NCBI GenBank assembly: GCA_031549025.1
Contig: JAVBQN010000061.1
Span: 6,882 to 70,881, forward strand
Reading direction: 5' to 3'
From: Candidatus Adiutrix sp.
Lineage (GTDB): Bacteria; Desulfobacterota; Desulfarculia; Adiutricales; Adiutricaceae
DNA length: 64,000 nucleotides
Numbering within the stretch: position 1 is the first letter of the stretch; every line of letters starts with the position of its first letter. The notes under the pieces were generated by a model. That model worked only from the letters and a program-made list of their open reading frames with translations. It was not told the DNA's origin and ran no database searches. Both the position numbers and the translations under genes were made by a program. This document shows positions 24,182-62,444 of the stretch, in pieces.

Positions 24182-24231
24182 TAATGCAAGGTAAAAAATA
24201 TATGAATAACCACTCCCGGTCGAGCCCGGCT

Positions 24232-38638: not shown

Positions 38639-38653
38639 CCGGCCGAGTCGCCG

Positions 38654-39733
38654 ATGGAAAGGGTGGCCATGCCCCTGATCAGCGTCGTGATTCCCGTCTA
38701 CAATGCCCAAAGCTATTTGGAGCGCTGCTTCCGCAGTCTCGAACATCAGACCGTGTCGGATCTGGAAGTCATTTTGGTGGACGATGGTTCGACGGACTCG
38801 AGTTTACCCCTGGCCCGGGATCAGGCCCGGCGGGACTCCCGTTTCCGGGCCCTGGCCCGACCCCACCAGGGCCAGTCCGCGGCCCGTAACGCCGGGCTGG
38901 GTGAAGCCGCGGGCGAATACGTCTTCTTCATGGATGCTGACGACGAGTTGCCTCCCGGAGCCCTTGAGGCCCTGCTCCGGGGTCGGGAACGATCCGGGGC
39001 TGATCTGGTGCTGGGCGACTACCGATGGTTTTTTTATGACGGCCGGGGGACTGTGGCGACTTGGAGGGATCGGGAGCGTCTGGTGTCCGGGGCTGATGCC
39101 CTGGAGGACATTTTTGTTGATTTCCTTGGTAATATTAAGAATATGAGGAACTTTTACACCGTTTGGGGCAAGCTCTACCGTCGAGATCTCCTCAACGAGC
39201 GAAACATCCGTTTTGATGAAACTTTGGCCGCGGCCGAGGATAATCTTTTCGTCTTTCAATACCTGGCTGCCTGCCGGTCCATATTGTACATCAAGGATGT
39301 GGTCTATATCTACTACCATCGGGACAACAGCTTCGCCTCCGCCCGGCTCTACCAGAACCACACCTTCGACTTCAAAAAGCCCTATGCTTTTCTGTGCGGC
39401 CATCTTCTCAGCCGGGGGCATCCCCGGGCTTTGGCCCTTCATGGCAACGCCCTGGCTGAACAAGCCCTGGTCGGATCCTTTCACATTACCCGGCGGGCGA
39501 ACTGGCTGAGCTTCAGAAGTTTGGCCGAGGCCCGGCAAAAAATCGCCCGTCTCTGGGCTGACGAAGAAATCCATCGCGGTCTTCTGTACTATCGGGCCAC
39601 GGTCGATGACAACTTTTTTTTCATTCCCGGCCTGGCCGCGAAGCGGCAGATCCGGCGTCTGATGCTGGCCTTTAAACTGCAAATTATGTTGAAGGCCTTC
39701 TTCAAACCGGCCGGGAAGGAGTCCCGTCCATGA
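38654..39733 (+). CDS. Glycosyltransferase family 2
   Basis: ISVVIPVYNAQSYLERC, VILVDDGSTD, ARNAGL and FFMDADDEL (DxD). An alternative start is at 38669. Confidence 0.9.
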   Translation: MERVAMPLISVVIPVYNAQSYLERCFRSLEHQTVSDLEVILVDDGSTDSSLPLARDQARRDSRFRALARPHQGQSAARNAGLGEAAGEYVFFMDADDELPPGALEALLRGRERSGADLVLGDYRWFFYDGRGTVATWRDRERLVSGADALEDIFVDFLGNIKNMRNFYTVWGKLYRRDLLNERNIRFDETLAAAEDNLFVFQYLAACRSILYIKDVVYIYYHRDNSFASARLYQNHTFDFKKPYAFLCGHLLSRGHPRALALHGNALAEQALVGSFHITRRANWLSFRSLAEARQKIARLWADEEIHRGLLYYRATVDDNFFFIPGLAAKRQIRRLMLAFKLQIMLKAFFKPAGKESRP

Positions 39734-40797
39734 GTGACCGTTTCGCTATTGATGGACATAAGCTGCACCTGCACCCGGAACGGGTGGCCGCCTGGTTGTC
39801 CGGCCGGGATATTGCCCCGATCTATGTTGAGATCAGTTCATCCGGGGCCTGTAACCACCGCTGTCGGTTCTGTAGTCTGGACTTCATGGGCTATCAGAAA
39901 CGCTTTCTGCCAAAGGAATTGCTTTCGCGGCGGCTTTTGGAGATGGGGGCGGCCGGGGTCAAAGCCGTCATGTATGCCGGCGATGGCGAGCCGCTGCTGC
40001 ATCCCGATATGCCCGCCTTGACCGTGGCCGCCAAGGAGGCCGGCCTGGATGTGGCGTTTACGACCAACGGGGTCTTTCTGTCTCCGGATAAAGCGGGGAT
40101 CATGCTGCCGCATACCAGTTGGATCAAGATCAGCTGCAACGCCGGGACGCCTGGAACCTACGCCGGAATCCACGGCTGCCGGGCTGAAGACTTCGGGACT
40201 GTGCTCGATAACGCGGCCCGGGCCGTGCGCCTGCGGGATCAGAGGCGGGGGGGCTGCGCCATCGGTTTTCAACTGGTGCTGTTGCCGGAGAATCAGGCCG
40301 AGGCCGTGACCCTGGCCCGGCTCGTTCGCGATTTGGGGGCCGACTATCTGGTGATCAAGCCGCACTCCCAGCACCGTTTGAGCGGGAAGACCGCCTACCG
40401 GGATCTGCGCTACGGGGAATGCGAACCTCTGGCGGAGGAATTGGCCGCCTTGGACACGCCATCGTTTAAAACCGTTTTCCGCCGGGAGGCCATGCGGCGG
40501 CGCGATGCTGGCCGGGCCTCCTACGAACGGTGTCTGGCCTTGCCCTTCTGGGCTTATGTGGACGGCGGCGGCCAGGTCTGGACCTGCAGCCGTCATATGG
40601 GCGAGAAGGATTTCCTGTGCGGGAACCTCCTGGATTCACCCATGTCCGAAATATTCGGTGAAGCGCGGCGGGCGGGAATACGCCGTTGCGCGGAGACTTT
40701 GGATATTGCCGACTGCCATGTGGATTGCCGCATGGATGCCATCAACGCCTGGCTCTGGGAACTGGCCCGCCCGGGGCCGCATGTGAATTTCATCTGA
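39730..40797 (+). CDS. Radical SAM enzyme (SPASM/twitch-like C-terminus), paralogue-like to 43152..44216
   Basis: SSSGACNHRCRFCS (CX3CX2C), YAGDGEPLLHP, FTTNG and C-terminal CLALPFWAYVDGGGQVWTCS...CGNL...CHVDC. 4-nt overlap with the GT2 stop. Confidence 0.85.
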   Translation: MSDRFAIDGHKLHLHPERVAAWLSGRDIAPIYVEISSSGACNHRCRFCSLDFMGYQKRFLPKELLSRRLLEMGAAGVKAVMYAGDGEPLLHPDMPALTVAAKEAGLDVAFTTNGVFLSPDKAGIMLPHTSWIKISCNAGTPGTYAGIHGCRAEDFGTVLDNAARAVRLRDQRRGGCAIGFQLVLLPENQAEAVTLARLVRDLGADYLVIKPHSQHRLSGKTAYRDLRYGECEPLAEELAALDTPSFKTVFRREAMRRRDAGRASYERCLALPFWAYVDGGGQVWTCSRHMGEKDFLCGNLLDSPMSEIFGEARRAGIRRCAETLDIADCHVDCRMDAINAWLWELARPGPHVNFI

Positions 40798-40804
40798 GGC
40801 CGGC

Positions 40805-41413
40805 ATGATCATCGGTCTTGACTTGGATAACACCCTCATCTGCTATGACAGGCTTTTTCATCGCCTGGCCCGGGAACGGAGCCTCATCGGGCCCGTGGTG
40901 CCGGCTCGGAAAGTCCCGGTCCGCGATGCTATCCGGGCCGTCCACGGGGATGAAGCCTGGCAGGAACTCCAGGGGCTGGCCTACGGACCCCGGCTGTCTG
41001 AGGCCGAACTGTTTCCCGGCGCCCGGGAGGCCCTGACCGGTTGGCGGGCGGCCGGGTGGCGGCCGATCGTCATCAGCCATAAAACCCGGTGTCCGGCCCG
41101 GGGCGACTGGGAACTTAGAGCCGCGGCCTTGGTCTTTCTGGAGCGCGGGGGTCTGGTCCCCGATCTTATTGCCGGGGGCGACGTCTTTTTCACCGACGAT
41201 CTGGCGGCTAAAGTCCGGCTGGTGGGCGAACTGGGTTGCCGGGCCATGATCGACGACCTGCCGGAAGTTTTCCGGCACCCGTTGTTCCCGGCCGGAGTCG
41301 CCCGTCTGTGGTTCGACCCCGGCCTGGCCTCCCCTCCGGAACCCGGCCTGACCGTTTGCGGTGGCTGGGCTGATCTCGACCAGGAGATACGAAACTGTGC
41401 CTTCCGTTCTTGA
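40805..41413 (+). CDS. HAD-superfamily hydrolase (sugar-phosphate phosphatase candidate)
   Basis: MIIGLDLDNTL (DxDxT), VISHKT and MIDDLPEV. Confidence 0.7.
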   Translation: MIIGLDLDNTLICYDRLFHRLARERSLIGPVVPARKVPVRDAIRAVHGDEAWQELQGLAYGPRLSEAELFPGAREALTGWRAAGWRPIVISHKTRCPARGDWELRAAALVFLERGGLVPDLIAGGDVFFTDDLAAKVRLVGELGCRAMIDDLPEVFRHPLFPAGVARLWFDPGLASPPEPGLTVCGGWADLDQEIRNCAFRS

Positions 41414-42212
41414 CCATCGTTCCCGGCGGCTGCGTCGGGTCATGCTGGACGCCCTGTACCACGGCGGCCGGGGCCACCTGCCCTCGGCCTGTTCCTGCGT
41501 CGAAATTCTGCGGGTCCTGTACGATTCCGTGCTGCGGGTGAGCCCCGAAGAACCGGATCGGCCCGGGGACGACCACTTCATCCTGTCCAAGGGGCACGGC
41601 TGTCTGGCCCTGTATGTCCTTTTGGCGGAAAAGGGCTTTTTCCCGGCGGCGGAACTGGGCGGCTTCTGCGCCTTTGATTCGCTTCTGGGCGGGCATCCCG
41701 ACCGCCGCATCCCGGGCGTGGCCGCCTCCAGCGGCAGCCTGGGCCATGGGCCGGCCGTGGGCGTGGGGTTGGCCCAGGCCGCCCGCCTAGACGGCCTTGA
41801 TTCCCGGGTTTTCGTCCTCTGCGGCGACGGGGAGACGGACGAGGGCAGCGTCTGGGAGGCCCTCTTGATGGCGGCCAAGCACCGGCTGGACCGTTTCAGC
41901 CTGATAGTGGATTACAACCGGATGCAATCCTGGGACGCGGTGGCCGAAATCCTGCCCCTGGAACCGTATGCCGACAAGTTCCGGGCCTTTGGCGCGGCCG
42001 TGCGGGAAGTGGACGGCCACGACCCGGCAGCCCTTTTGGCGGCCTTTGAAAGCCTGCCCTTCGAACCGGGCCGGCCTTCGGTATTGGTGGCCCACACGGT
42101 CAAGGGCCGGGGCTTTCCCAGCCTGGAAAACAACCTGGCCTGGCACCACCGCTCCCGGGTGACCGAGGCGGAATATCAAGCCCTGATGGCCGAACTGGAG
42201 AGCCGATCATGA
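41397..42212 (+). CDS. Transketolase, N-terminal (ThDP/PP-binding) subunit
   Basis: GTG at 41397 preceded by AGGAGA. GGRGHLPSACSCVEIL, ILSKGHGCLALY, SGSLGHG and CGDGETDEGSVWEA (GDG-x-NE-like ThDP motif). Confidence 0.88.
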   Translation: MPSVLDHRSRRLRRVMLDALYHGGRGHLPSACSCVEILRVLYDSVLRVSPEEPDRPGDDHFILSKGHGCLALYVLLAEKGFFPAAELGGFCAFDSLLGGHPDRRIPGVAASSGSLGHGPAVGVGLAQAARLDGLDSRVFVLCGDGETDEGSVWEALLMAAKHRLDRFSLIVDYNRMQSWDAVAEILPLEPYADKFRAFGAAVREVDGHDPAALLAAFESLPFEPGRPSVLVAHTVKGRGFPSLENNLAWHHRSRVTEAEYQALMAELESRS

Positions 42213-43150
42213 GAAAAACCGCTCTGAACGGCGCTCTGGAACTGGCCCGGCGCGACCCCCGGGTCTGCCTCATCGCCTCGGACCTGGGCTTCGGCTCCCT
42301 GGACGACTTCCGGGCCGAAATGCCGGATCGTCTGTTCCGCGAGGGCATCAGCGAACAGGCCATCCTCGGCCAGGCCGCGGGCCTGGCCCTGGGCGGCAAG
42401 ATCGTCTACGTCAACGCCATAGCCGCCTTCCTGGTCCGTCGGGCCCTGGAGCAGCTCATCCTGGATCTGGGCCTCAACCAGGCTCGGGTGCGGCTTATCG
42501 GTTCCGGCGGCGGCCTGGTCTATGCCCCCCTGGGGCCCACCCACCTGGCCGTGGAGGATTTGGCTTTGCTGCGCCCCGTTCCGGGTCTGACCATCCTCAC
42601 CCCGGGCGACGCCGGGGAAATGGCCCAGCTTCTGCCCCAGACCCTGGAGTTGGACGGCCCGGTCTACATCCGCCTGGCCAAGGGCGGGGACCCTGACTTC
42701 AGTTCCGGCGGGGAACCCCGGCGACTGGGTCGGGCTGTGCGGCTCCTGGGCGTTTCCGGGGCTCTGGACATCCTTTTCGTCACCTGTGGGATAACCGCTC
42801 AAATGGCCTTGGGCGCGGCGGCCGAACTGCGGGCCGAGGGCCGGGCTGTGGAGGCGCTCCACTGCCACACCTTCAAGCCTCTTGACGAGGAGGCCGTGCT
42901 GGAGGCCGCCGGCCGGGCCCGGCTGGTGGTCACTGTCGAGGAGCACGTGCGATACGGCGGCCTGGGCTCGGCGGTGGCCGAGCTTCTGGCCGAGTCCGGC
43001 GCCCCGTCCCGCCCCCGTCTGATCCGGGCGGCCCTGCCGGACGCCTTTTTTCACGAACATGGTTCCCAGAACCAGATTCTGCGCCACCACGGATTGTCGG
43101 CCGAAAACCTGGCCCGTCTGGTCCGGGAAGCGCCCGAAGTCGGAGCCTGA
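42209..43150 (+). CDS. Transketolase, C-terminal (Pyr/TKC) subunit
   Basis: FREGISEQAILGQAAGLALGG, GPTHLAVEDLALLRPVPGLTIL and YIRL. 4-nt overlap with the N-terminal subunit gene. Confidence 0.88.
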   Translation: MRKTALNGALELARRDPRVCLIASDLGFGSLDDFRAEMPDRLFREGISEQAILGQAAGLALGGKIVYVNAIAAFLVRRALEQLILDLGLNQARVRLIGSGGGLVYAPLGPTHLAVEDLALLRPVPGLTILTPGDAGEMAQLLPQTLELDGPVYIRLAKGGDPDFSSGGEPRRLGRAVRLLGVSGALDILFVTCGITAQMALGAAAELRAEGRAVEALHCHTFKPLDEEAVLEAAGRARLVVTVEEHVRYGGLGSAVAELLAESGAPSRPRLIRAALPDAFFHEHGSQNQILRHHGLSAENLARLVREAPEVGA

Positions 43151-43151
43151 C

Positions 43152-44216
43152 ATGGGGCTGCTCTATTCCCAACTGAAAATGTTCCGTTTCCCGGAAAAAC
43201 TGGCCAGCCTTCCGGCCGGCCGGCCCATGGCCCCGCCGCTCCATATCCGGCTGAAGCCCACCAACGCCTGCAATCACCACTGCCACTACTGCGCCTATCG
43301 CCAGCCCGGGCTCCAGCTCGGCCAGGACATGCGGGTGGCCGACACCATCGGCCGCGATAAAATGCTGGAAATCGCCCGCGACCTGGTGGGCATGGGAGTT
43401 AAGGCCGTGACCTACAGCGGGGGCGGGGAGCCGCTGATGTACCCCCACCTTCTGGAGGCCTCGCGGATTCTGGCCGAGGGCGGGGTGCGGCTGGCCTGCC
43501 TGACCAATGGCAGCCGCCTGCGCGGGGAAGCGGCCGAGTTCTTCGCCCACCGGGCCACTTGGCTGCGAGTCTCCATGGACGGCTGGGACGATGAGTCCTA
43601 TACCCGCTTCCGGGGCGTGCCGGAGGGGGAATACGGCCGGATCATGAACAATCTGGCCGCGTTCGCCAAGCTCGGCGGCCCCTGCGCCCTGGGGGTTTTC
43701 TACGCCGTCCACGCCCACAACTGGCGGCCCCTGCCCGAGGTGCTGGCTCGGCTGAAATCGGCCGGGGTGCGGGCCGTGAAGGTTTCGGGCATCGTGGTTT
43801 CCAACCGCGGGAGCGAGAACGACGCCTACCACGCCCCTCATTTCGAGGCCGTGCGGGAGCTTCTGGCCCGGGCCCGGGCCGATCTGGCGGACGACCGATT
43901 TGAAATCCAGGACGCCTGGCATAATCAGGGTGACAGGTTCGCCAAGGAGTATCACTGGTGCCCCTATTCCCAGGTTCTGGCCGTCATCGGGGCTGATCTG
44001 GGAGTCTACCCCTGCCAGGACAAGGCCTACAACGACCAGGCCCGGCTTGGGGACCTTGGCGCCCAATCTTTTTGGGAGTTCTGGGAAAATAACAAAGCGG
44101 CTTTTTTCCGTCTCGATCCGGCCCGGGATTGCGGTCATCATTGCGTGTCCAACGCGCGCAACCGGCTTTTGCTTGAATACCTGGATCTTGATCCCGAACA
44201 CGGATTCTTCATTTGA
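43152..44216 (+). CDS. Radical SAM enzyme (SPASM/twitch-like C-terminus)
   Basis: The ATG is 1 nt after the transketolase stop. KPTNACNHHCHYCA (CX3CX2C), YSGGGEPLMYP, LTNG and C-terminal WCPYSQVLAVIGADLGVYPC...CGHHC. Confidence 0.85.
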   Translation: MGLLYSQLKMFRFPEKLASLPAGRPMAPPLHIRLKPTNACNHHCHYCAYRQPGLQLGQDMRVADTIGRDKMLEIARDLVGMGVKAVTYSGGGEPLMYPHLLEASRILAEGGVRLACLTNGSRLRGEAAEFFAHRATWLRVSMDGWDDESYTRFRGVPEGEYGRIMNNLAAFAKLGGPCALGVFYAVHAHNWRPLPEVLARLKSAGVRAVKVSGIVVSNRGSENDAYHAPHFEAVRELLARARADLADDRFEIQDAWHNQGDRFAKEYHWCPYSQVLAVIGADLGVYPCQDKAYNDQARLGDLGAQSFWEFWENNKAAFFRLDPARDCGHHCVSNARNRLLLEYLDLDPEHGFFI

Positions 44217-44246
44217 CCGTCACAGCGAATCAGGGAGAAAAGCGGC

Positions 44247-45158
44247 ATGGGTAAAGTGCTGGTCACGGGGGCCGGCGGTTTTGTCGGAGGGTTTATAGCC
44301 GCCGAACTGGCCCGGGACGGGTGGGATGTGATGGGATTGGCCCGTCGGCCGGGGGACCGGAAGGTCCCCTTTCCGGTGGTGGTCCATGATTTGACCGAGC
44401 CCCTCCCGCGTATCCCGGATGTCATCGCCGTGATCCATGCCGCGGCGGCCGTCCGGCGTCTGCGTGGCCTGTCGGCTGAGGAACATCGCGCCGACAGCCA
44501 AGGACTTGTTCTCGCTGATTTTCTGCGGCACAATGTTTTGGCCACAGCCAACGTGGCCTGTTTCGCCCGGGAGAATGGGGTGGAAAAAGTCTTCTACACT
44601 TCGTCGGTGAGCGTTTACGGTGATTGCCGCTCATCGGTTATGGACGAGGGTGGAGACATCATAAATCCCGACTCGTACGCTTTGACCAAATACGCTGGAG
44701 AGCTCCTCCTGGCCGACGAAACGATTTTTAAAAGCCTCAGGCTGCGCCTGCCCGGAGTCGTCGGTCCGGGATCCGAGGGCCATTGGCTGGCCAATCTCAC
44801 GACTCGGCTGCTGGCGGGAGAGCGGGTGGTCATCTACGAGCCGGATTTCGAGATCAACAACTTTGTCCCGGTGCGCTCCCTGGCCGAATTCGTCTCCAAG
44901 ATGATCGGCCGTGATGACTGGGAGTCCCAGACCGCGCTTCTGGGCTGCGCCCGGGGGGCCAAAATAAGGGACATCGCCGAACGCGCGAAGGCCGCCCTGG
45001 GTTCGACCTCGGAAATAGCGGTGGGCCGCCCGGTCAAACCCCCTTTCCGTCTCGACGTGTCCCGGGCCGTGGCTCTGGGGTACCAATCCCCGGATCCGCT
45101 GGAGATCGTCGAGAATTACTGCGCGGCCCTCTTGGCCGCCGGCCGTCGGCCGGCCTGA
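44247..45158 (+). CDS. NAD-dependent sugar epimerase/dehydratase (extended SDR)
   Basis: KVLVTGAGGFVGG (Rossmann GxxGxxG) and YALTKYAGE (YxxxK). Confidence 0.85.
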   Translation: MGKVLVTGAGGFVGGFIAAELARDGWDVMGLARRPGDRKVPFPVVVHDLTEPLPRIPDVIAVIHAAAAVRRLRGLSAEEHRADSQGLVLADFLRHNVLATANVACFARENGVEKVFYTSSVSVYGDCRSSVMDEGGDIINPDSYALTKYAGELLLADETIFKSLRLRLPGVVGPGSEGHWLANLTTRLLAGERVVIYEPDFEINNFVPVRSLAEFVSKMIGRDDWESQTALLGCARGAKIRDIAERAKAALGSTSEIAVGRPVKPPFRLDVSRAVALGYQSPDPLEIVENYCAALLAAGRRPA

Positions 45159-45166
45159 GCCCGTCC

Positions 45167-46177
45167 ATGGCCGCTCCGGGGGACTCCGCCGCCCTGGTTG
45201 CCCGTATCCAAGCCCTTCTGGGCGCGGGGATAAGCGGCTTGGCGCGTCTCGGCGGAGGCCGCAACAGCCAAGTTTGGCTGACTGTTTCCGATGCGGGCCG
45301 GCGGTATGTCGTCAAATGGTATTATACCGTACCTGGAGCCGGGCGCGACCGCTTGGACGCGGAATGGCGGGCTCTGGTTTTTTTGCGGGCCCGCGGCCTG
45401 GATTGTGTGCCCCGGCCTGTGACCCGGGATGCTTCGGCCAATCTGGCGGTCTTTGAGTATATCGCGGGGCGCGTTCCCGACGCCGAAACCGGGCGGGTCG
45501 AATCGCTGTTGGGTTTTATGGGGCGATTGCTTCGGCTGCGTCAGGCTCCCGGGGCCTCGGAACTGCCCCCGGCCGCCGACTCTCTGCCGCGGCCGGCCAC
45601 GGTGATCGGCCAGATCCAAGCCCGCCTGGACCGGCTGCGGCTCGTGCCGGAACCGTCTCTGGAGCGTTTTCTGCGCGATGAGTTCGATCCGGCTTGGAGG
45701 CGCTTGCGGAGCGAGGCGCCGAAAGTCTGGCCGGACGGAGGCCCAGCCATCCTCAGTCCGTCGGACTTCGGATTTCACAACGCCATCTTGAGCCCCGACG
45801 GCCGGATGTATTTTGTGGATTTCGAATATTTCGGCTGGGACGATCCGGCCAAGCTCATTGGAGACACGATCCTGCATCCCCATGAAAACATGGGGCTGTC
45901 GGAGGCTCAGAGTCGCTCCTGGCTTGACGGCATGCTCGAGCTGCACCGGGACGACGCCGGCCTTTCCCGGCGGGCGCGATTGCTTCTGCCCTTTCTGGCT
46001 TTGAAGTGGAGCCTGATTTTGCTGAATGAATTCCTGCCCCTAGACGCCGGCCGACGGGCTTTTGCCGGGCGCGTCCCCGGGCCGGAAGTTTTCACGCATC
46101 AGTTGGAAAAGGCCCAACGGATGCTGGAAAAGGGGGCCGAAATGGAGAGGGCCCTCTTCCCCGGCCGACTCTCCTGA
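45167..46177 (+). CDS. Aminoglycoside/choline-kinase-like phosphotransferase (APH fold)
   Basis: YVVKWY (Lys), SPSDFGFHNAIL (D-x4-N catalytic loop) and YFVDFEYFGWDDP (DFE metal-binding). Confidence 0.75.
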   Translation: MAAPGDSAALVARIQALLGAGISGLARLGGGRNSQVWLTVSDAGRRYVVKWYYTVPGAGRDRLDAEWRALVFLRARGLDCVPRPVTRDASANLAVFEYIAGRVPDAETGRVESLLGFMGRLLRLRQAPGASELPPAADSLPRPATVIGQIQARLDRLRLVPEPSLERFLRDEFDPAWRRLRSEAPKVWPDGGPAILSPSDFGFHNAILSPDGRMYFVDFEYFGWDDPAKLIGDTILHPHENMGLSEAQSRSWLDGMLELHRDDAGLSRRARLLLPFLALKWSLILLNEFLPLDAGRRAFAGRVPGPEVFTHQLEKAQRMLEKGAEMERALFPGRLS

Positions 46178-46352
46178 TTTGCAGCCGATGGAATTGAAAT
46201 TGCGTTGTATTCCTGATGGGCGCCTGAAGGCGGCAGTTGTGACCTGATGTTGGATGTTTTTTGGTAAGAGGCCGTATCGTTTGACCAGTCGCCACCCACT
46301 TTTTGATCGCCGTAAGCTGACTCTGCGTCCCCTCAGGGAGCGGGAGCATGAT

Positions 46353-47240
46353 ATGGACCTGTCTATCGTCCGGCCGCTGCTTCCGGTGGCGGGCGCCGTT
46401 CCGAAACCCGTCCGCCTGGCGGCCCGGGCCATGGTCGAGGCCAAGCGGCGAGGGGCGCCGGTGATCTTCATGATGGGCGCCCATGTTCTGCGTTCCGGGG
46501 TGCAGCGGTATATCATCGACCTGATGGAACGGGGTCTGGTCGCCGGGTTGGCCGGCAACGGGGCCTGCGCCGTCCACGACTTTGAACTGGCTCTGATCGG
46601 GGCCACCACCGAGAGCGTGGCCCGGTATATCCAGGACGGCCGCTTCGGCCTCTGGGCCGAATTGGGCGAGATGAACCGGGCTTTTATCCGCGGCGCGGCC
46701 GAGGGCCTGGGGGCCGGGGAATGCGTCGGCCGCCTCATCACGGAAGGCGGTTTTCCCCACCGGGACATCAGCCTGTTCGCCGCGGCCCACCGGCTGGGAC
46801 GGCCATTCACCGTTCATATCGGCCTCGGACACGATATTCTCCACGAGCACCCCACCTGTGACGGATCAGCTTTGGGTGCGGTCAGTTATACTGATTTCCT
46901 GATTTTTACCCAACTCCTTTCCGGGCTCGAAGGCGGAGTTTTCGCCAATTTCGGCAGCGCGGTCACCGGACCGGAGGTCTTTTTGAAAGCCCTGGCCATG
47001 AGCCGCAACGCCACCGGCGGCCCCCGACGCTTCACCACCCTGGTCGGCGACCTCCACGAACTGCCGGAAAACGTTTCCGGCGAAGCGGAAAAAACCGCGC
47101 CGATGTATTTTTACCGGCCCTGGAAAACCATTCTGGTCCGGTCGGTTCGTGACGGAGGCCTGGGGCTGTATGCCCAAGGCCGGCATGAATACACTATTCC
47201 CTTCCTGTGGTCGGCGGTCAATGAAGAAGAACAGCGATAA
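46353..47240 (+). CDS. Uncharacterised protein, possibly deoxyhypusine-synthase-like fold
   Basis: The ATG at 46353 follows GGGAGCGGGAG (the ORF track start 46254 is also possible). The weak resemblance to the DHS family (VIFMMGAHVLRSGV...LAGNGACAVHDFE...HIGLGHDI...NFGSAVTGPEVF) is from memory only. Confidence 0.5.
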   Translation: MDLSIVRPLLPVAGAVPKPVRLAARAMVEAKRRGAPVIFMMGAHVLRSGVQRYIIDLMERGLVAGLAGNGACAVHDFELALIGATTESVARYIQDGRFGLWAELGEMNRAFIRGAAEGLGAGECVGRLITEGGFPHRDISLFAAAHRLGRPFTVHIGLGHDILHEHPTCDGSALGAVSYTDFLIFTQLLSGLEGGVFANFGSAVTGPEVFLKALAMSRNATGGPRRFTTLVGDLHELPENVSGEAEKTAPMYFYRPWKTILVRSVRDGGLGLYAQGRHEYTIPFLWSAVNEEEQR

Positions 47241-47841
47241 TGCCAGCCCCTTGTTCGCCTGGGACGATCAACTCGCCGCCATGGGCCGGACTCTGGCTGG
47301 TCTGGAAGCCTGGGGCCGGGATGGCCTGCCCCAGGCTCCCGACGCGGCCTTCGCCGAGCTCCTCGCGCACACGGAGCGGCTGCGGAGCCGGGACGGCACG
47401 CTTTTTCTGGCCGGCAACGGGGCCAGCGCCAGCCTGGCCAGCCACAGCGCCGTGGATCTGATGAAAAATGCCGGCCTCAAGGCGGTGGTGCTCACCGATC
47501 CGGCCCTGATGACGGCCTGGGCCAACGACCTGTCTTATGAGGAAGTTTTTGCCGCGCCCTTGGATATCTGCCTGCGTCGGCGTGATCTTTTGGTCCTGAT
47601 CAGCAGTTCCGGTCAATCCCCCAACATCCTCGCCGCCGCCCGGGCCAGGGGGGCCTGGCTTATGACGCTTTCGGCCATGCGCCCGGACAATCCCCTCCGG
47701 GGTCTCGGGGACCTGAACTTCTACCTGCCCGCCGGCACCTACGGATTGGCGGAATCCGCCCATGCCGTGGTTCTGCACCACTGGATAGATCTGGAGGCCG
47801 CCCGGAGCCGCCGCCAACCAAAGGAGGACGGCTGTGGGTGA
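47221..47841 (+). CDS. SIS-domain sugar-phosphate isomerase (GmhA-like)
   Basis: FLAGNGASASLASHSAVDL and LLVLISSSGQSPNIL match the GmhA/DiaA SIS pattern. It overlaps the upstream gene by 20 nt. Confidence 0.8.
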   Translation: MKKNSDNASPLFAWDDQLAAMGRTLAGLEAWGRDGLPQAPDAAFAELLAHTERLRSRDGTLFLAGNGASASLASHSAVDLMKNAGLKAVVLTDPALMTAWANDLSYEEVFAAPLDICLRRRDLLVLISSSGQSPNILAAARARGAWLMTLSAMRPDNPLRGLGDLNFYLPAGTYGLAESAHAVVLHHWIDLEAARSRRQPKEDGCG

Positions 47842-49348
47842 AATCCTGGCCTTTGACCGCTTGTCCGAAGAGGTGAGCCGCCATCGGGGGGAGGGCCGCC
47901 GGGTGGTGCTTTGCCACGGTGTGTTCGACCTGCTCCATATCGGTCATATCCGGTATTTGCAAGGCGCCAAAGAGTACGGCGACGTCCTGGTGGTCACCCT
48001 GACGCCGGACCGGTATGTGGACAAGGGGCCGGGCCGGCCGGCCTTCGCGGAGTCGCTGCGGGCGGAAATGCTGGCTTCGCTGGGTTTTGTCGACCATGTG
48101 GCCGTCAACTTGTGGCCCACCGCGGAGGACACTCTCAGAGCCCTGCGGCCGGATGTCTACGCCAAAGGCGCCGAGTTCAAGAACATCGCCGACGATCCCA
48201 CCGGCAAGATCGCCCTGGAGGCGAAGGTGGCCGAAGCGACCGGCACCCGCCTGGTTTTCATCGACGACATCACGTTCAGCTCTTCCAACCTTATCAACCG
48301 ATACCTGAATGTCTATTCGGAAGAGCTGGCCATGTATCTCAGCCTGCTTCGGCAACGCTACCGGTTGTCCGAGGTTATGGAGCTGATCGACAGCCTGTCT
48401 CGACTGAAAGTGCTGGTCCTGGGGGAAGTCATCATCGACCAGTATGCGTATTGCTCACCCTTGGGGTTGTCGTCGAAAGACCCGACCATGGCCCTGCGCC
48501 AGAATTCCTGCGAAAGCTTTGCCGGGGGGGCGGCGGCTGTGGCCCGACACGCCGCCGGATTGGCCGGCCAGGTTGATTTTTTAACTGTCTTCGGCCGGGA
48601 ATGTCCGTATTTGGACCTCGTGCGGGAGAGCCTGCCGTCGAATGTGCGCCTTATGTACGAGGAGGCGCCGGCCTCTCCCACGGTCCGCAAGCTGCGCTAT
48701 GTGGACCACTATTCGATGGCCAAGCTTTTAGAGATTTACCACATGTCCGACCAGCCGTTGCCGGAGGAACTGATCCAGGGTTTAACCGGCCGCCTGGCGG
48801 GCTTGGTGGGGGACTACGATCTCGTTCTGGTCGCGGACTACGGCCATGGCCTGATCGCCAAGCCGCTGATAGACCTGCTCTGCGGCCGGGCGCCCTACCT
48901 GGCGGTCAACACCCAGGCCAACGCCGGCAACCGGGGCTACCACACCATCTGGCGCTATCCCCGGGCCGACTTCATTTCCCTGGCCCGTCATGAGATAAAT
49001 CTGGCCTTCCAGGACCGCCAATCCCCGGTGCGGGAGCTCATGGTGGAACTGAAACAGAAACTCCGGCCCGCCACGCTCATCGTGACCTGCGGGTCGGACG
49101 GCCTGAAGGCGTTGACCGATGATGAATATATCCAGACGCCGGCTTTGGCCACCCGGGTCATTGACCGGGTGGGGGCCGGCGACGCCCTGTTCGCCGTCGC
49201 CGCCCTGTCCTGCCGCCTGGGATTCCCCCTGGAAATAACCGGGCTTCTGGGCAACGTCGCCGGCGCGATCATGGTGGAGACGGCCGGGACCAATCAGTCC
49301 ATCACCCGCAACGGGCTCCGGAAGGCTTTCACCGCCATGCTGAAATAG
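47834..49348 (+). CDS. Bifunctional cytidylyltransferase-like nucleotidyltransferase (N-terminal) + PfkB sugar kinase (C-terminal); HldE/RfaE-like with swapped domain order
   Basis: The GTG follows AAGGAGGA. The N-terminus has VVLCHGVFDLLHIGHIRYL (HxGH). The C-terminus has VLVLGEVIIDQY, FAGGAAAVA and DRVGAGDALFA (PfkB). Confidence 0.85.
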   Translation: MGEILAFDRLSEEVSRHRGEGRRVVLCHGVFDLLHIGHIRYLQGAKEYGDVLVVTLTPDRYVDKGPGRPAFAESLRAEMLASLGFVDHVAVNLWPTAEDTLRALRPDVYAKGAEFKNIADDPTGKIALEAKVAEATGTRLVFIDDITFSSSNLINRYLNVYSEELAMYLSLLRQRYRLSEVMELIDSLSRLKVLVLGEVIIDQYAYCSPLGLSSKDPTMALRQNSCESFAGGAAAVARHAAGLAGQVDFLTVFGRECPYLDLVRESLPSNVRLMYEEAPASPTVRKLRYVDHYSMAKLLEIYHMSDQPLPEELIQGLTGRLAGLVGDYDLVLVADYGHGLIAKPLIDLLCGRAPYLAVNTQANAGNRGYHTIWRYPRADFISLARHEINLAFQDRQSPVRELMVELKQKLRPATLIVTCGSDGLKALTDDEYIQTPALATRVIDRVGAGDALFAVAALSCRLGFPLEITGLLGNVAGAIMVETAGTNQSITRNGLRKAFTAMLK

Positions 49349-49410: not shown

Positions 49411-51138
49411 TCAGAGCGGCGTTTTCACCGCGTCCGTCAGGCGGACTAAAATTTTATTCGGCGTCAGGGCCGGGGCGGACGCGCGCTGAAGCCCGAGGCG
49501 CTCCAGGAGGAGGCCCCCCTCGGCAAACAATTCCGACGCGGGGCGTTCCGTGGCCAGGCGCCGGGCCAGATCCGTACGGAAGAGGGTGCGGCCCGGGCCG
49601 GGGGGCAGGGCCTCCAGGAGTTCCCGGGCGCGCGAAGGGGGGGCCATCTCCCGGTCGTCGAAGGGGCGGCGCTTGAATTCGGGGGTGAAGAGGGTCGCCC
49701 AGGGTTCGGGGTCCCGTTCCTCGAGGTGGCCGTCCCGGTCGGCCCGGTCGAAATCGGCCTTCACCAGGTCGGCCCCTTCCATCAGGGCCGTGCCCAGAAG
49801 CTTTTTCAGCGCGAAACTCCTCAGCCAGGTTCCCGGTTCCAGAAAACAGACATACTCGCCTTGGGCCAGTTCCAGGCCCCGGGCCCAGGCCCGGGCTTGA
49901 TCTTCATCGGTCCCGGCCGGCACGGTGAACCGGGAATCGTTTCGGGACAAGGCCCGGCACAAATCCCGGTTCGCGCCCCGATCGGCCCGCCCGGTCAGGA
50001 GCACCTCATAGTGCTCTGAGGCCAGGTCGTCCTGGCGGGCCAGGGTCCTCAGAGCCGGGAGCAGGGTGTCGTCGAATTCCTCCCGCACGGGCAGGATCAC
50101 GGTCAAAAGCGGCTTTCCGCCGTTTCCCTGAAAGCGGCCGGCGATGGCGCGGTCGAAAAGGTAGTTGGCGGCCCCCGGGTCATAGTTGTCCAGCAGGCTC
50201 TGCCGCCACAGGTCCTGAAGCTCGGCGAAGGTGAAGCGGCGGATGAAGCCGTCGGCCAGCGTCTTGATTTGAGGCTTGAGGTCGGGGCGGATCAGGCGGA
50301 AGGATTCGAAGAGAAACCGCAGCTGCTGATCCCAGATGTGCACCAGAGCCTCCCGGCTCACCGACCGCTCGCGGCACAAGGCGTCGCACTGCTCGTAGAC
50401 CGCCCGCAGGTCCAGGCGGCGTTCGTCCCACATGCCGTAGGCCTGACCCTCCGGCCGCTTCCACATGTACAGATACAGGGTTTCCGGCAGAACCTCGATG
50501 CGCCGGGCCGAAACCATGGCCCCGATCACGAACGGCATGTCTTCGTTGACCCGGGTGGGGGCGAAACGTATTCCGTTCTCCTCGATGAATTCCCGGCGGT
50601 AGAGGCGGAACCAGGGGTAGAACGTGACGTTCAGCAGCTCGGGCATCTCCTCCACGGAGACCGGCCCCCGGGCGCGGGCCCGGGCCAGGAGGTTCCGGTC
50701 TATTTCCCACATGGGTTTCCGCTGCCCGGTTCCGGTTTCGATGATGGTGTATTGGAACAGGAGCACGTCCGGCGGATCCGGGGCGCTCAACACCGGCCAG
50801 AGCTTGAGGAAGGCGTCTGAGGTGAGCCGGTCGTCACTGTCCACGAACCAGACAAAGCGCCCCCGGGCCGCCGCCAGGCCCGTATTGCGGGCCACGCCCA
50901 CCCCGGCGTTGGGCTGGGTGAGCACCTTGACGTTGGGGAACCGCCCGGCATAGTTTCGGGCCAGAGCCAGGGATTGGTCCGTTGACCCGTCATCGACGAC
51001 GAGAACCTCAAAGGACAGCGGCGCGCACTGGAACAGGATGGAATCGAGGCAGACGGCCAGGAGCCGTTCCAGGTTGTACACCGGGATGATAAGGCTCAGG
51101 TCCGGCCGATCCGGTTGAAGCGGCATTTCGGCGCTCAT
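49411..51138 (-). CDS. Two-domain glycosyltransferase (GT2 + degenerate GT2-like)
   Basis: Domain 1 has LSLIIPVYNLERLL, VLVVDDGSTD and FVDSDDRL. Domain 2 has LLTVILPVRE...YVCFLEPGTW (the DxD is replaced). Confidence 0.85.
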   Translation of the reverse strand: MSAEMPLQPDRPDLSLIIPVYNLERLLAVCLDSILFQCAPLSFEVLVVDDGSTDQSLALARNYAGRFPNVKVLTQPNAGVGVARNTGLAAARGRFVWFVDSDDRLTSDAFLKLWPVLSAPDPPDVLLFQYTIIETGTGQRKPMWEIDRNLLARARARGPVSVEEMPELLNVTFYPWFRLYRREFIEENGIRFAPTRVNEDMPFVIGAMVSARRIEVLPETLYLYMWKRPEGQAYGMWDERRLDLRAVYEQCDALCRERSVSREALVHIWDQQLRFLFESFRLIRPDLKPQIKTLADGFIRRFTFAELQDLWRQSLLDNYDPGAANYLFDRAIAGRFQGNGGKPLLTVILPVREEFDDTLLPALRTLARQDDLASEHYEVLLTGRADRGANRDLCRALSRNDSRFTVPAGTDEDQARAWARGLELAQGEYVCFLEPGTWLRSFALKKLLGTALMEGADLVKADFDRADRDGHLEERDPEPWATLFTPEFKRRPFDDREMAPPSRARELLEALPPGPGRTLFRTDLARRLATERPASELFAEGGLLLERLGLQRASAPALTPNKILVRLTDAVKTPL

Positions 51139-54110
51139 GCGGGCCGGTCCGTGACCGCCGCGCCGCAGCGGCGCCGCAGAGAGGGGGCTTCCGTGCCCGC
51201 CCGCGGTTCATCCGGCAGGCGACAGGCCGCCCGGGGCCGCGCCGGAACATTCCACCCCGGCTCCAAGAGGGTCACCCGGCCGGCCGCCCCGCAGTTGACC
51301 GCGTCGGCGAAAGCTTGAGGGGAAAGCTCTTCCAGATACAGGTCGAAGATGATGTCCGGCAAGCCCAGTTTGCGCCACTGGACCAGGTCCATGAGGAGCA
51401 AATCGGGGTGGAGGTATTTTTCCCCCAGGTTCGGCGGGTAGGGCGGCCGCTCCCAGCTCGCGGGGAGGCCCCGGCCGGGGTTCGCTGCCCGGTGCTCCTC
51501 CAGGGTTTCCCAGTCCAGCGCGCCGCCCAGGGCGGCGCCGGCGAGGTCGTGTTGAAAGGCCGGAGCCGGGTCCCGCTCGAAAAGGCTGTCGGGCTCGACA
51601 TAGAGCACCCGGCGATGGTGAGGAAGGAAAAGGGGCAGAAAGAGCCGCAAAAGGGGGCGCCGCGCCAGCTTCCGGGGTTCCTCGCCGGGAAGCGGCGGGG
51701 GGAGCGGCAGGTCGAAGGATTCGGTCTCGATGATCCGCAGGTCGAGGTGGGGGTGCTTTTCAACTTCAGCCGTCAGTTCCCGCCGGCTTTCCGCCGTCAG
51801 GCCGTCGGCCAGGACCGTCACCTCATAGATCCGGGCCGGATCGCCCTGGGCCCCGATGGAGGCCAGGAGAGCCCGGGCGGCCGGCCCGGCCTTTTCATCC
51901 ACGGCCGTGGCCAGACAGACGGCCTCGGGGTTCGGCGGCGGCAGGGGACCGAGCCGGGTTTCCAGTCGGCCCACCCGGAGGAAGGGGACTTCCCGGACCG
52001 AGTCGCCCCGGTCCCGCAGCCGGGCGGCAAACAAGGCCATGATAACCGCGCCGAGGGTTTCTCCGGGCCGGCGCGTCCGGCCGTCCCATTCGGGGCGGAG
52101 CGCTTCCAGGAGCGGGAAGGCCAGATCGCGGAATTCCTCCCAGAATTCCCGGCGCATCGCGAAGGCCAGGGCCGGAGACCGGCGGTCGCCGGAAAGATAA
52201 TCCTCCATGTAGGGGGCCAGGGGACTCCGGGCCAATTCCCGGCGCAGGGCGGCCAGGAGACCCGGCCCATACAGGGATGAGAGCCATTCGGCGACGGAAA
52301 GCCGGCGACTGGCCTCTTCCGGGGTCGGCTCCGGACAGGGCAGCAGCATTTCCGCCCGCCACACCAGGTTGTCGTGCGGCAGGTAGACCTGCCCCCGCCC
52401 CAGGGCCAGGCGGGCCTGACCGGCATCCAGTTTGTAATAGTCCAGGGTCCCGGCATCCAGGCGGTCACAGCAGAAGTTTTCAGTCCGGTCCCAGGTGCCG
52501 AGTCGGAAGACGGGCAGGAAATCGGCCCGGGCCAGGCCCACGAAGAGGCTGTCCGGGTCTTCGGCCTCCAAACCGCGCATCAAGGCCAGGTCGCCCAGAA
52601 AATCGTCCGCCGCCAGAGCTATGGGGCGGAAGACCAGATCCCGGGGCACCCGGGCATCTTCCGGTCCGGCCACTAGAATGTGGATGGTCCGGGCGAAATC
52701 CTCATCGAGCATCTGCAATTTGGTGGCCGGATAATAGTCATCGAGCCGGGCGCGGATGAACCCAGCGGCCAGGGAGGAGGCCCGGAGGTTGAAAAAATCG
52801 AAACGCCGGGCCTCTCCCGGGGCGTCCGTCACCCCCGCATACAGGACGCCGGGGTTGAACACCAGCCGGCGGAAACGCTCCAGCCCCCCGGCCGAAGGCA
52901 CATAATCGCGGAGCAGCAGCACCCAGTCGCGGGCTCCCCACTCCCGCAGCCGGGGGCCCAGGGCGGAGAAGTCGTCGCCGTCGAGATCGAAGGCGGCCAG
53001 GCCCCTCTCGGCCGCCAGCCGCCGCGATTCCGCTGAAGAGCTGACGATTTTGATTCCGGGATCGAGGGCGGCGGCCCGGTCCAGGAGCCGTCCGGCTTCA
53101 TCCGGCGGGCAGGCGCCGGCCAGAGAGAGGATTACGGCGATATCGGCGCCCGGAGCCAGGAGTTCGTTGATTTCCTTGGCCCTTTTGCTGTTGTCCGAAA
53201 GATAGGGCTGGAACCGGCGGGTAATCTCGCCGGCCCCCTCGGCATAACGGCGGCCGTCGAAAACTATGGTGCGTCCGGCCAGGTGCTTCGGGCTGGGCAG
53301 ATCCCGCAGCCGCGTTTCCCAACTGGGGGAGATGTAGTCGGTTTCCAGGTTGGCGTATTGCCAGGGCAGGCTCAGAGCCGCCCCGCAGATTTCGCACCAG
53401 TGGAGCTGGTCCTTGAAATCCCGGGGAGTCCGTCGCCACCAGCCGGACTCCACGGGCCAGCCGCCGGGGCCGTCCAGCAACATGTCCAGGGCGGCGGCCA
53501 CCTCGCAGAAAAAGGCCCCCTTGGGAGTGATGCTGGCCGACCAGAGGTTCTGTATCCAGCAGGCGTCCCGCAAGGGGAACCATTGGGAATCGGGTATGCC
53601 CAGATCGTGGCGGGAGACCATCAGGGTTCCGTGGCGGGAAGGGTAGGAGTGGTCGTTGAGGTACTGGAGGCCGAAGACGTCCTGAATCAGCTCGAAATGC
53701 TTTTTGAAAGGCCGCCCCACGCAGGTGAAGAGGGTGTGCTGCCGCTTGGCCGCGGTGGGGGTCAGGTGGGCGCTGAGGGTGATGTGGCTGTCGGTGATCT
53801 GCCAAAGGGTGTGTTTCAGAAAATTGTCGGTGGGGTACATCAGCCCGGCGCCGGGATCGTCGTGGCCCACGGACCGGCGGTAATACTCCATCAACTCCGG
53901 AAACCGGGGATGGAGGAGAGGCTCCCCGCCCATGACGCTCGCGGACCGGGAAAAGCCGCGCAGGGAATCCACCGCCGCTTTGAACGTCGGGAGATCCATG
54001 AAAAATGGCCGCCGATGATGCCCGCAGAACCGGGTGCAGTGCGAGCACTGGTTGGGACAGGCATTGGTGATGTCTATCTGGATGTATTTCATGTCGGCGG
54101 GGCTGCGCAT
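51135..54110 (-). CDS. Radical SAM domain - central unknown region - GT8-like glycosyltransferase fusion (991 aa)
   Basis: The N-terminus has IDITNACPNQCSHCTRFC (CX3CX2C) and VMGGEPLLHP. The C-terminus has RLFLPLFLP...RVLYVEPDSLF and YLHPDLLLMDLVQWRKL, resembling GT8 (YLDxD / FNxGVxxxNLxxWR). An alternative start is at 54092. Confidence 0.75.
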   Translation of the reverse strand: MRSPADMKYIQIDITNACPNQCSHCTRFCGHHRRPFFMDLPTFKAAVDSLRGFSRSASVMGGEPLLHPRFPELMEYYRRSVGHDDPGAGLMYPTDNFLKHTLWQITDSHITLSAHLTPTAAKRQHTLFTCVGRPFKKHFELIQDVFGLQYLNDHSYPSRHGTLMVSRHDLGIPDSQWFPLRDACWIQNLWSASITPKGAFFCEVAAALDMLLDGPGGWPVESGWWRRTPRDFKDQLHWCEICGAALSLPWQYANLETDYISPSWETRLRDLPSPKHLAGRTIVFDGRRYAEGAGEITRRFQPYLSDNSKRAKEINELLAPGADIAVILSLAGACPPDEAGRLLDRAAALDPGIKIVSSSAESRRLAAERGLAAFDLDGDDFSALGPRLREWGARDWVLLLRDYVPSAGGLERFRRLVFNPGVLYAGVTDAPGEARRFDFFNLRASSLAAGFIRARLDDYYPATKLQMLDEDFARTIHILVAGPEDARVPRDLVFRPIALAADDFLGDLALMRGLEAEDPDSLFVGLARADFLPVFRLGTWDRTENFCCDRLDAGTLDYYKLDAGQARLALGRGQVYLPHDNLVWRAEMLLPCPEPTPEEASRRLSVAEWLSSLYGPGLLAALRRELARSPLAPYMEDYLSGDRRSPALAFAMRREFWEEFRDLAFPLLEALRPEWDGRTRRPGETLGAVIMALFAARLRDRGDSVREVPFLRVGRLETRLGPLPPPNPEAVCLATAVDEKAGPAARALLASIGAQGDPARIYEVTVLADGLTAESRRELTAEVEKHPHLDLRIIETESFDLPLPPPLPGEEPRKLARRPLLRLFLPLFLPHHRRVLYVEPDSLFERDPAPAFQHDLAGAALGGALDWETLEEHRAANPGRGLPASWERPPYPPNLGEKYLHPDLLLMDLVQWRKLGLPDIIFDLYLEELSPQAFADAVNCGAAGRVTLLEPGWNVPARPRAACRLPDEPRAGTEAPSLRRRCGAAVTDRPA

Positions 54111-54260
54111 CGCTTCTCCTTCACTCGAGACGGGTGTCCATCATACATTCAAAAGGCGTCATCGTCCAGCGCGGTTTTGCGGTCGCCCAGACGCTTGAAG
54201 ATCGTATCGGCCTGGGGTATGATTGACGCAAGCAATATTTCAGCCAAAGGCGGTTCCGGC

Positions 54261-57597: not shown

Positions 57598-57607
57598 CGG
57601 GCGGCCT

Positions 57608-57780
57608 CCTTGGTTCCAGCAATTCTCATTATGGCTTGAGCGCCTTGACGGGGAACTGGCCGTAGCCGGGCAAAAAATGTGATTTTTACTCGGCGAGCGG
57701 CTTTATGACCATTGCCACCGGTCGCTTCGCTCCGTCTCCCTTCGGTCGACCAGGCAAAATGAGAATTGCTGCCTTGGTTC
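57608..57780. repeat. 14-nt inverted repeat with flanking 9-nt direct repeat bracketing about 127 nt
   Basis: ccttggttc-cagcaattctcatt (57608-57630) and aatgagaattgctg-ccttggttc (57758-57780). The left copy abuts or overlaps the SD (rc CCAAGGAGG) of the GT2-TPR gene. Confidence 0.8.
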
Positions 57781-57789
57781 AGCCGGTTT

Positions 57790-57818
57790 TTGACAAGTAC
57801 ACCGGGGTTTACTATAAT
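57790..57818 (+). promoter_or_regulatory. Consensus sigma70 promoter TTGACA-17 nt-TATAAT
   Basis: ttgaca at 57790-57795, a 17-nt spacer and tataat at 57813-57818. It faces the 932-aa GT gene, whose ATG is at 58002. Confidence 0.65.
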
Positions 57819-58001
57819 CGCAAAAGTCTATTCTGTAAAGCCCGAGGCGGTTTGAGGCCGCCGGTTCCCCTGGAGCGGACCATCATGAATGTGCCTGTTG
57901 TCGCCGACTCCGGCGGCCTGACGGTTTCCCTCGCGGCCGAACCGCTTGGGGATATGGCGGCGAAGGCTCATGAAACCTCGCGGCCCGGGTGTGGTTGAAC
58001 C

Positions 58002-60800: not shown

Positions 60801-60956
60801 GACGCCGCCCGGGCGGCCGGAGTTTTTATTTACTACTCCGGCAGCTAAATAAGTCATCCCCGTGATTTCGCCAAAGCTCGAAATCACTGGACTTCAGCGG
60901 CCGGGAACAGACTTCTAAAGTTGCCGGGTTAATATCGCGGCCAGGAGCGGTTGTTC

Positions 60957-62417: not shown

Positions 62418-62444
62418 TCTCTCTATGGGCGGCCGCAAATCCCC

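Follow-up and report, generated by a model that had tools for sequence, protein, structure and literature searches.

A probable specialised NDP-heptose-type pathway with a reversed nucleotidyltransferase-PfkB fusion and a split transketolase in Candidatus Adiutrix

Does an operon that carries a heptose-type isomerase, kinase and nucleotidyltransferase together with a transketolase of its own encode the housekeeping route to ADP-heptose, or does it encode a pathway apart? The question is raised by 12 genes at 37718-49348 on the forward strand of a 64,000-nucleotide stretch of DNA from Candidatus Adiutrix sp., hereafter the window, which corresponds to positions 6882-70881 of contig C39 in a 3.29-Mb metagenome-assembled genome (MAG; completeness 90%, contamination 2.9%). 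A preliminary description of the locus had read seven of these genes as a self-contained module for a nucleotide-linked heptose or higher sugar, and had argued that it was not simply a housekeeping pathway. Our analysis makes it quite likely that the operon is a specialised, paralogous pathway of the nucleoside diphosphate (NDP)-heptose type. We put at roughly one in two the probability of a more specific reading, in which a second NDP-heptose-type pathway, next to the housekeeping route to ADP-heptose, provides an unusual sugar of higher carbon number for the surrounding glycan locus, which is rich in family 2 glycosyltransferase (GT2) genes.

The 12 genes are tightly packed, with intergenic gaps of -20 to +76 nt, and encode the following products:

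37718-38638, + strand: radical SAM protein of 306 amino acids (aa), gene 1 of the operon (Pfam Radical_SAM, 33 bits)
38654-39733, + strand: GT2 glycosyltransferase (Pfam Glycos_transf_2, 124 bits)
39730-40797, + strand: radical SAM protein 'b', 355 aa (Pfam Radical_SAM, 60 bits), paralogue of the protein at 43152-44216
40805-41413, + strand: C1-capped HAD phosphatase, 202 aa (DxDxT at residues 6-10, HAD motifs and AlphaFold2 (AF2) fold)
41397-42212, + strand: N subunit of a split transketolase, binding thiamine diphosphate (ThDP) (Pfam Transketolase_N, 118 bits)
42209-43150, + strand: pyrimidine-binding/C subunit of the split transketolase (Pfam Transket_pyr and Transketolase_C)
43152-44216, + strand: radical SAM/SPASM protein 'c', 354 aa (Pfam Radical_SAM, 78 bits, and SPASM)
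44247-45158, + strand: extended SDR, 303 aa (Pfam Epimerase, 74 bits)
45167-46177, + strand: APH/choline-kinase-fold kinase, 336 aa (Pfam APH, 48 bits)
46254-47240, + strand: GSU2086-family protein (NF052581, 348 bits against a cut-off of 250)
47221-47841, + strand: GmhA-like SIS sugar-phosphate isomerase, 206 aa (gmhA model TIGR00441, 51 bits against a cut-off of 209)
47834-49348, + strand: nucleotidyltransferase-PfkB fusion (CTP_transf_like at residues 27-117, PfkB at 376-490)

Pfam and NCBIfam place all seven genes that had originally been grouped together (HAD phosphatase, both transketolase subunits, SDR, APH kinase, isomerase and fusion) at or near the positions first assigned to them. 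That inventory was correct in what it listed and incomplete in what it left out, for the same operon holds five further genes: the radical SAM genes at 37718, 39730 and 43152, the GT2 gene at 38654 and the GSU2086-family gene at 46254. Among the omissions were thus a conserved enzyme, that of the GSU2086 family, and two paralogous radical SAM enzymes. The grouping is not a matter of chance, because the same set recurs beside the fusion in dozens of unrelated genomes.

Whether the module is housekeeping can be judged from the rest of the genome, and a search for separate genes bears out the preliminary description on this point. Other contigs carry a gmhA gene (C37, 174 bits on the model TIGR00441), a stand-alone HldA-like kinase (C22, 289-342 bits), an HldC-like transferase (C43, 166 bits), a GmhB-like gene (C50, 129 bits) and a full-length tktA (C57, 838 bits). 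A canonical HldD was not found in the genome, where the best match reaches 119 bits against the TIGR02197 cut-off of 274.6. The cassette proteins share 24-40% identity with their housekeeping counterparts in this genome, as against 50-68% with the cassette proteins of other phyla; in sequence terms they are old paralogues of the housekeeping set. The same coexistence is seen in 61 genomes drawn evenly from the phylum. Canonical kinases (209-409 bits) occur in nearly all of them, and the four genomes with a fusion-type kinase (109-117 bits, in ORFs, or open reading frames, of 511-607 aa) all have a canonical kinase as well.

The fusion itself reverses the domain order of HldE, in which the kinase is N-terminal and the adenylyltransferase C-terminal. 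Its earlier designation as a domain-swapped HldE was right about this order and overstated how close the two proteins are. The whole protein scores 156 bits against the HldE model (cut-off 521), its kinase half 115-117 bits against TIGR02198 (cut-off 345) and its transferase half 94.5 bits against TIGR02199 (cut-off 181.5). The kinase half, whose best PDB match is HldA 4e84 at 86 bits, is 22-25% identical to canonical HldA/HldE kinases, and the transferase half is 35-40% identical to HldC or to domain II of HldE. The preliminary description had proposed that both halves be placed phylogenetically, and in a maximum-likelihood tree the kinase half does not group with the canonical HldA/HldE kinases: one clade holds 28 fusion kinases of many phyla (Shimodaira-Hasegawa-like approximate likelihood ratio test, SH-aLRT, 99), another holds 31 canonical kinases (97), and a long branch lies between them. 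As its sequence places it, the fusion is an old, separate clade. A recent swap of the genome's own HldE is ruled out by the very long branch and by the 24% identity of the kinase half to the genome's own HldA.

Both the GAGD motif and the HxGH motif, the latter as HIGH, are present in the fusion. Heptose nucleotidyltransferases (HENases) combine HxGH with a C-terminal (F/L)xxGxSTT motif (PMC11461863); at the position of this second motif the fusion reads ITFSSSNLI, which is rich in serine, has no glycine and has SSS for STT. The fusion is found in at least 582 species representatives, and its carriers include Desulfobacterota-type lineages, Verrucomicrobiota, Planctomycetota, Acidobacteriota, Nitrospirota, Magnetococcales, Dehalococcoidia, Omnitrophota and Melainabacteria. 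Its closest named relatives, among the matches listed, are in Candidatus Adiutrix and Maridesulfovibrio.

To see what travels with the fusion, we searched the window proteins against 82 fusion loci and clustered all ORFs; co-variation was counted in the 42 loci that offer at least 8 kb on each side of the fusion. Beside the fusion there is a GSU2086-family gene in 53 of the 82 loci, a SIS gene in 51, transketolase subunits in 35-36, a member of the radical SAM b/c family in 33, and a HAD gene and an APH gene in 27 each. The transketolase, HAD and APH genes strictly co-vary: all are present in 23 of the 42 loci, none in 16-17, and neither HAD nor APH is ever found without the transketolase. Radical SAM 'b' tracks the SIS gene (both in 22 loci, 'b' alone in 1). 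The paralogues 'b' (39730) and 'c' (43152) fall in a single ORF cluster, and homologues are 38-73% identical for 'b' where they adjoin the fusion and 42-57% for 'c' in cassette loci. Two genes at the start of the operon are locus-specific: the radical SAM gene at 37718 has no homologue adjoining the fusion in the 82 other loci, and the GT2 gene at 38654 has merely weak GT2 cross-matches in them. Other frequent neighbours in these loci are SDR dehydratases/epimerases (41 loci), methyltransferases (32), B12-radical SAM enzymes (21) and NeuB-like enzymes (16), together with RmlD-like reductases and DegT aminotransferases, which is the typical company of nucleotide-sugar tailoring. As a whole, the cassette is found in hundreds of mostly anaerobic species.

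Within the part of the cassette that most often accompanies the fusion, the SIS protein is 39% identical to the genome's own GmhA. Aligned with GmhA of B. pseudomallei, it keeps both catalytic/zinc histidines and the SSSGQSPN phosphate motif, with E68 replaced by Asp and Q175 by Glu. The GSU2086-family protein is predicted to have a deoxyhypusine synthase (DHS)-like fold of the NAD-type Rossmann kind. Its AF2 model has a predicted local distance difference test score (pLDDT) of 91, and the best Foldseek matches are DHS structures and the NAD-binding C-domain of ArgZ/AgrE (probability 1.0, template modelling (TM) score about 0.5). The family is far commoner than the fusion, exceeding the NF052581 cut-off in 41 of the 61 phylum genomes. 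In the present genome a second copy (377 bits, 40% identical to the window copy) lies outside the window and directly downstream of the housekeeping gmhA, at G000:C37:2803-4447 (locus L135), where gmhA scores 185 bits on PRK13936. The family appears to belong to heptose pathways in the phylum. Canonical HldD occurs in nine of the 61 genomes, six of which lack a GSU2086-family gene, one of which has a cassette-type copy only and two of which have both; this anticorrelation (3/42 against 6/19, Fisher p 0.02, kinship ignored) is no more than a hint that a redox step in heptose pathways, perhaps one like that of HldD, is supplied by the family. As to the extent of the window gene, the recorded call is 295 aa long (P0122), against a reading of 328 aa, the difference lying at 46254-46352. 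The recorded start probably trims a conserved N-terminus, because residues 17-30 of the 328-aa form are invariant across 31 homologues.

The split transketolase finds its best PDB matches in the split transketolase of Carboxydothermus hydrogenoformans (6yak for the N subunit, 196 bits; 6yaj for the C subunit, 164 bits), which has the same two-subunit layout. We aligned the cassette transketolases with the genome's own TktA; residue numbers are those that we take to be E. coli TktA positions. On the cofactor and donor side the enzymes are intact, with H26, D155 and N185 in 36 of 36 homologues, H66 and H100 in 35 of 36, and equivalents of E411 and H473 in all 35 cassette enzymes; R358 is likewise kept in 35 of 35. 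In transketolase, recognition of the acceptor's (2R)-hydroxyl falls to D469, and the acceptor phosphate is bound by H461 and R520. It is this pocket that has been replaced: H461 has become Gly (35/35), D469 Leu (33/35), R520 Lys (35/35) and S385 Gly (26/35), and R358 alone is retained from the acceptor and phosphate set of R358, S385, H461, D469 and R520. The enzyme of C. hydrogenoformans (6yaj), by contrast, keeps the acceptor-site His and Asp where the cassette enzymes have Gly and Leu, with Lys for R520. With R358 kept and Lys in place of R520, two cationic residues still stand at the phosphate site. Judging from these residues, the cassette transketolase probably still transfers a glycolaldehyde unit, and does so to an acceptor other than ribose-5-phosphate. 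The proposal that it supplies sedoheptulose-7-phosphate by normal chemistry becomes unlikely with an acceptor pocket remodelled across 35 cassette homologues.

Two further assignments of the preliminary description, the HAD protein as a GmhB equivalent and the SDR as an HldD equivalent, are not supported. Sequence models support the HAD assignment weakly (E 1.4e-3), no NCBIfam model matches at E <=0.01 and hence no GmhB model does, and a PDB profile search with the family gives a remote match to phosphoserine phosphatase (E 0.045). Motifs I-IV are all kept, with D6, D8, T10, S91, K136, D150 and D151 invariant in 21 homologues; motifs I and II are set apart by an insert of some 80 residues. The AF2 model (pLDDT 93.8) has a C1-capped fold most like those of 5'(3')-deoxyribonucleotidases (TM 0.70-0.75), and the gene, as described above, varies with the transketolase and the APH kinase rather than the fusion. 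On the HldD model (heptose_epim, TIGR02197, cut-off as above) the SDR at 44247 reaches 19.6 bits, and it has a homologue in one of the 82 loci; it is not conserved in the cassette and is a putative locus-specific tailoring enzyme. In the APH kinase, K50, E66, D200, N205, D218 and E220 are invariant in 20 homologues, and a PDB profile search with its family gives a remote match to corramycin phosphotransferase (E 2e-8 over about 90 residues). The active sites of the isomerase, the fusion, the HAD protein and the APH kinase look intact, as does the cofactor side of the transketolase.

To account for these features, we propose a pathway with a core and a detachable module upstream of it. In the core, as homology predicts it, the GmhA-like isomerase would convert a ketose phosphate to an aldose phosphate, the PfkB half of the fusion would phosphorylate the anomeric oxygen and the HldC-like half would form the nucleotide sugar, while the GSU2086-family enzyme would act on these same intermediates in a redox-type step, which may be an epimerisation. 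The detachable unit would consist of four genes, for the APH-fold kinase, the two transketolase subunits and the capped HAD protein. Here the kinase may phosphorylate a non-standard aldose, to which the transketolase, whose pocket would no longer read the (2R)-hydroxyl or bind phosphate in the normal way, would add a glycolaldehyde unit, so that the isomerase would receive a ketose phosphate of a non-standard kind; the distal phosphate of an unusual bisphosphate would be stripped off by the dedicated HAD enzyme. Further tailoring of the sugar may then fall to the paralogous pair of radical SAM enzymes and to the SDR specific to this locus. The upstream position of the transketolase module is one that we favour tentatively, at somewhat short of even odds, because the transketolase travels with a kinase and a small-molecule phosphatase, which argue for chemistry on free sugar phosphates, and because its expected product, a 1-hydroxy-2-ketose, is the type of substrate that a GmhA-type isomerase uses. 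A bolder form of the proposal, which we hold to be unlikely as a whole, is that the product of the cassette is a stereoisomer or deoxy variant of a heptose or octose that lies beyond the standard pathway, with the transketolase (D469 to Leu) extending an aldose phosphate that lacks the (2R)-hydroxyl, such as a 2-deoxy, 2-amino or 2-epi compound, and with the GSU2086 family as a hitherto unrecognised NAD-dependent core enzyme of heptose-nucleotide synthesis, a non-homologous stand-in for HldD in the many phyla lacking HldD.

How does the operon compare with pathways already described? With the ADP-heptose pathway it shares the logic of isomerase, anomeric kinase and nucleotidyltransferase, and GmhA-type catalytic residues are kept. 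It differs in that its equivalog scores all lie far under the cut-offs, the fusion order is reversed and the kinase belongs to a separate clade; it is without a GmhB-type or HldD-type enzyme, and adds a transketolase, an APH kinase, radical SAM enzymes and a GSU2086-family enzyme. The module thus resembles the ADP-heptose pathway in the way it works, but score, clade and domain order all place it outside that pathway, and the operon is a real, conserved variant of the NDP-heptose pathway. In the lincosamide octose route (LmbR, LmbN, LmbP, LmbK, LmbO), an enzyme that forms a C-C bond makes a ketose phosphate, on which an isomerase, a kinase, a phosphatase and a nucleotidyltransferase then act. 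The operon has this general logic in common with it, but where the lincosamide route has a transaldolase (LmbR) and a GHMP kinase (LmbP), the operon has a ThDP enzyme and a PfkB kinase; Pfam and NCBIfam find no transaldolase or GHMP kinase domain in any operon protein.

The closest genetic parallels come from two other organisms. In Coxiella burnetii, CBU0678 is a reversed-domain HldE paralogue that is essential for phase I (full-length) lipopolysaccharide (LPS) and distinct from the canonical CBU1655, which makes inner-core heptose (PMC5843353); what CBU0678 is needed for is the outer LPS and not the inner-core heptose. It lies near CBU0674, a phosphoheptose isomerase, and a 2026 review implicates it in the production of virenose (PMC13552124). 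By its published description, CBU0678 has an N-terminal transferase and a C-terminal kinase with a catalytic Asp near residue 455, compared with D450 in the window fusion, and on the same description-based comparison the window fusion has the other traits of this type, namely reversed order, coexistence with a canonical HldE/HldA and a site in a glycan locus. No Coxiella is found among the best 80 fusion loci of the at least 582 species. In Geobacter sulfurreducens, GSU2086 lies between GSU2085 (hldE) and GSU2087 (gmhA), and whichever of the three is disrupted, transposon sequencing (Tn-seq) shows a similar loss of fitness of the envelope type (PMC5585712). The three-gene association of HldE-type, GSU2086 and GmhA-type proteins is the same as in the window. 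The Geobacter trio appears to be the housekeeping pathway, whereas the window copy is a paralogue tied to the reversed fusion, the transketolase and the radical SAM enzymes. A full-text search of the literature found this genetic work on Coxiella and Geobacter only and no paper on the chemistry of the cassette. New here are the check for a housekeeping set, the co-variation of transketolase, HAD and APH genes, the fold of the HAD protein and the presence of GSU2086-family genes beside the housekeeping gmhA.

Several points weigh against the pathway that we propose. Across the 42 loci the SIS gene occurs without the transketolase in 10 and the transketolase without the SIS gene in 8, and in 13-14 of the 82 loci an E1-type alpha/beta ThDP pair takes the place of the transketolase, a replacement for which a tailoring transfer of two carbons to a shared acceptor accounts no less well than ketose supply does. 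The closest folds of the HAD protein act on nucleotides and not on sugar bisphosphates. The housekeeping genes sit on other contigs of the MAG and could in principle stem from another organism. Finally, the product, the nucleotide and the acceptor are all things that we infer. One of the loci with a replaced transketolase, L015 (ENA contig k141_2514194), can be described more closely: at 5585-7579 an E1_dh-type alpha subunit and a Transket_pyr/C beta subunit replace the split transketolase, and the fusion of this locus is the closest homologue of the window fusion, at 67% identity.

The E1-type pairs lend weight to an alternative that remains serious, even if we regard it as unlikely. The SIS protein, the GSU2086-family enzyme and the fusion may make ordinary NDP-D-glycero-D-manno-heptose from sedoheptulose-7-phosphate, after which the ThDP enzyme would add a two-carbon branch to an NDP-keto-heptose, with help from the radical SAM enzymes. 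Such a step would resemble those of the ThDP-dependent branching enzymes of deoxysugar pathways. It agrees with the loss from the transketolase of the residues that read a normal aldose phosphate, with the E1-type pair that stands in for it, and with the fact that the trio and the radical SAM genes occur free of transketolase in many loci, on account of which the core pathway can be taken to run without it. What speaks against late branching is the strict co-variation described above, and also the lack of an evident task for a kinase and a small-molecule phosphatase in tailoring an NDP-sugar. In addition, the donor-side His residues for the C1 hydroxyl are mostly kept, and therefore the product of the transketolase would be a 1-hydroxy-2-ketose, a compound of the type on which the GmhA-like isomerase acts.

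Ketose supply to the isomerase, which we continue to favour, had been put forward in another form by the preliminary description, and in that form it is quite improbable. There, a normal transketolase boosts sedoheptulose-7-phosphate or makes octulose-8-phosphate from a hexose phosphate, with the HAD protein as GmhB and the SDR as HldD. The gene inventory does superficially resemble GmhA, HldE, GmhB and HldD with a transketolase added, and on the cofactor side the transketolase retains its catalytic residues; but H461, D469, R520 and S385 are replaced throughout its family, the HAD protein has a cap, finds no match among GmhB models and goes with the transketolase instead of the fusion, the SDR is neither HldD-like nor conserved, and the genome has a full tktA elsewhere. 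Very improbable is the idea that the product is a soluble small molecule, such as a nucleotide-linked metabolite, a cofactor or an antibiotic-like compound, and no glycan precursor, the nearby glycosyltransferases being unrelated: enzymes of the cytidylyltransferase fold and PfkB enzymes do act on non-glycan substrates too, and the radical SAM paralogues weakly match the nucleotide-acting MoaA and viperin, but the cassette is surrounded, in one phylum and another, by genes for glycosyltransferases and for nucleotide-sugar tailoring, and the genetics of Coxiella and Geobacter point to LPS or the envelope (PMC5843353, PMC5585712).

The surroundings of the operon in the window are as follows. At 49411-64000 the glycan locus goes on; this part has five or more GT2 genes, a gene for a 991-aa protein whose N-terminus is of the radical SAM type, and further radical SAM genes at 60951 and 62445; GT2 and radical SAM genes are found past the operon on the opposite strand and beyond, out to 64 kb. 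No membrane flippase or polymerase turned up among the scanned ORFs of 49411-64000. Divergent from the sugar operon, at 35519-37393 on the reverse strand, lies a gene whose 624-aa product combines in a single chain two nucleotidyltransferase modules of the RlaP type (PolBeta-like; Pfam RlaP, 269 bits, two stretches). Farther upstream are fliK-flgD-flgE, at 25.6-30.7 kb. An island of low GC content (52-56%, against about 65-70%) at 12155-25011 on the reverse strand holds genes for a PFL-like glycyl radical enzyme (794 aa) and its activase, a DmpG-type aldolase, an acetaldehyde dehydrogenase, an Ldh_2 dehydrogenase, a TRAP transporter and an IclR regulator. This set has the look of an acquired cluster for glycyl-radical-enzyme catabolism with no relation to the glycan locus, and the island is ruled out as a part of that locus.

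The reversed fusion occurs in at least 582 species of more than 10 phyla, many of them with the full cassette, and the cassette probably defines a novel surface sugar of anaerobes. A gene of the same published reversed architecture is needed for the full-length, virulence-associated LPS of Coxiella burnetii. For enzymology, the locus raises the question of which acceptor is used by a transketolase that has Leu in place of the Asp that reads stereochemistry. It also raises the question whether the GSU2086 family, present in 41 of the 61 phylum genomes and standing beside gmhA both here and in the Geobacter operon, is a missing step of heptose biosynthesis.

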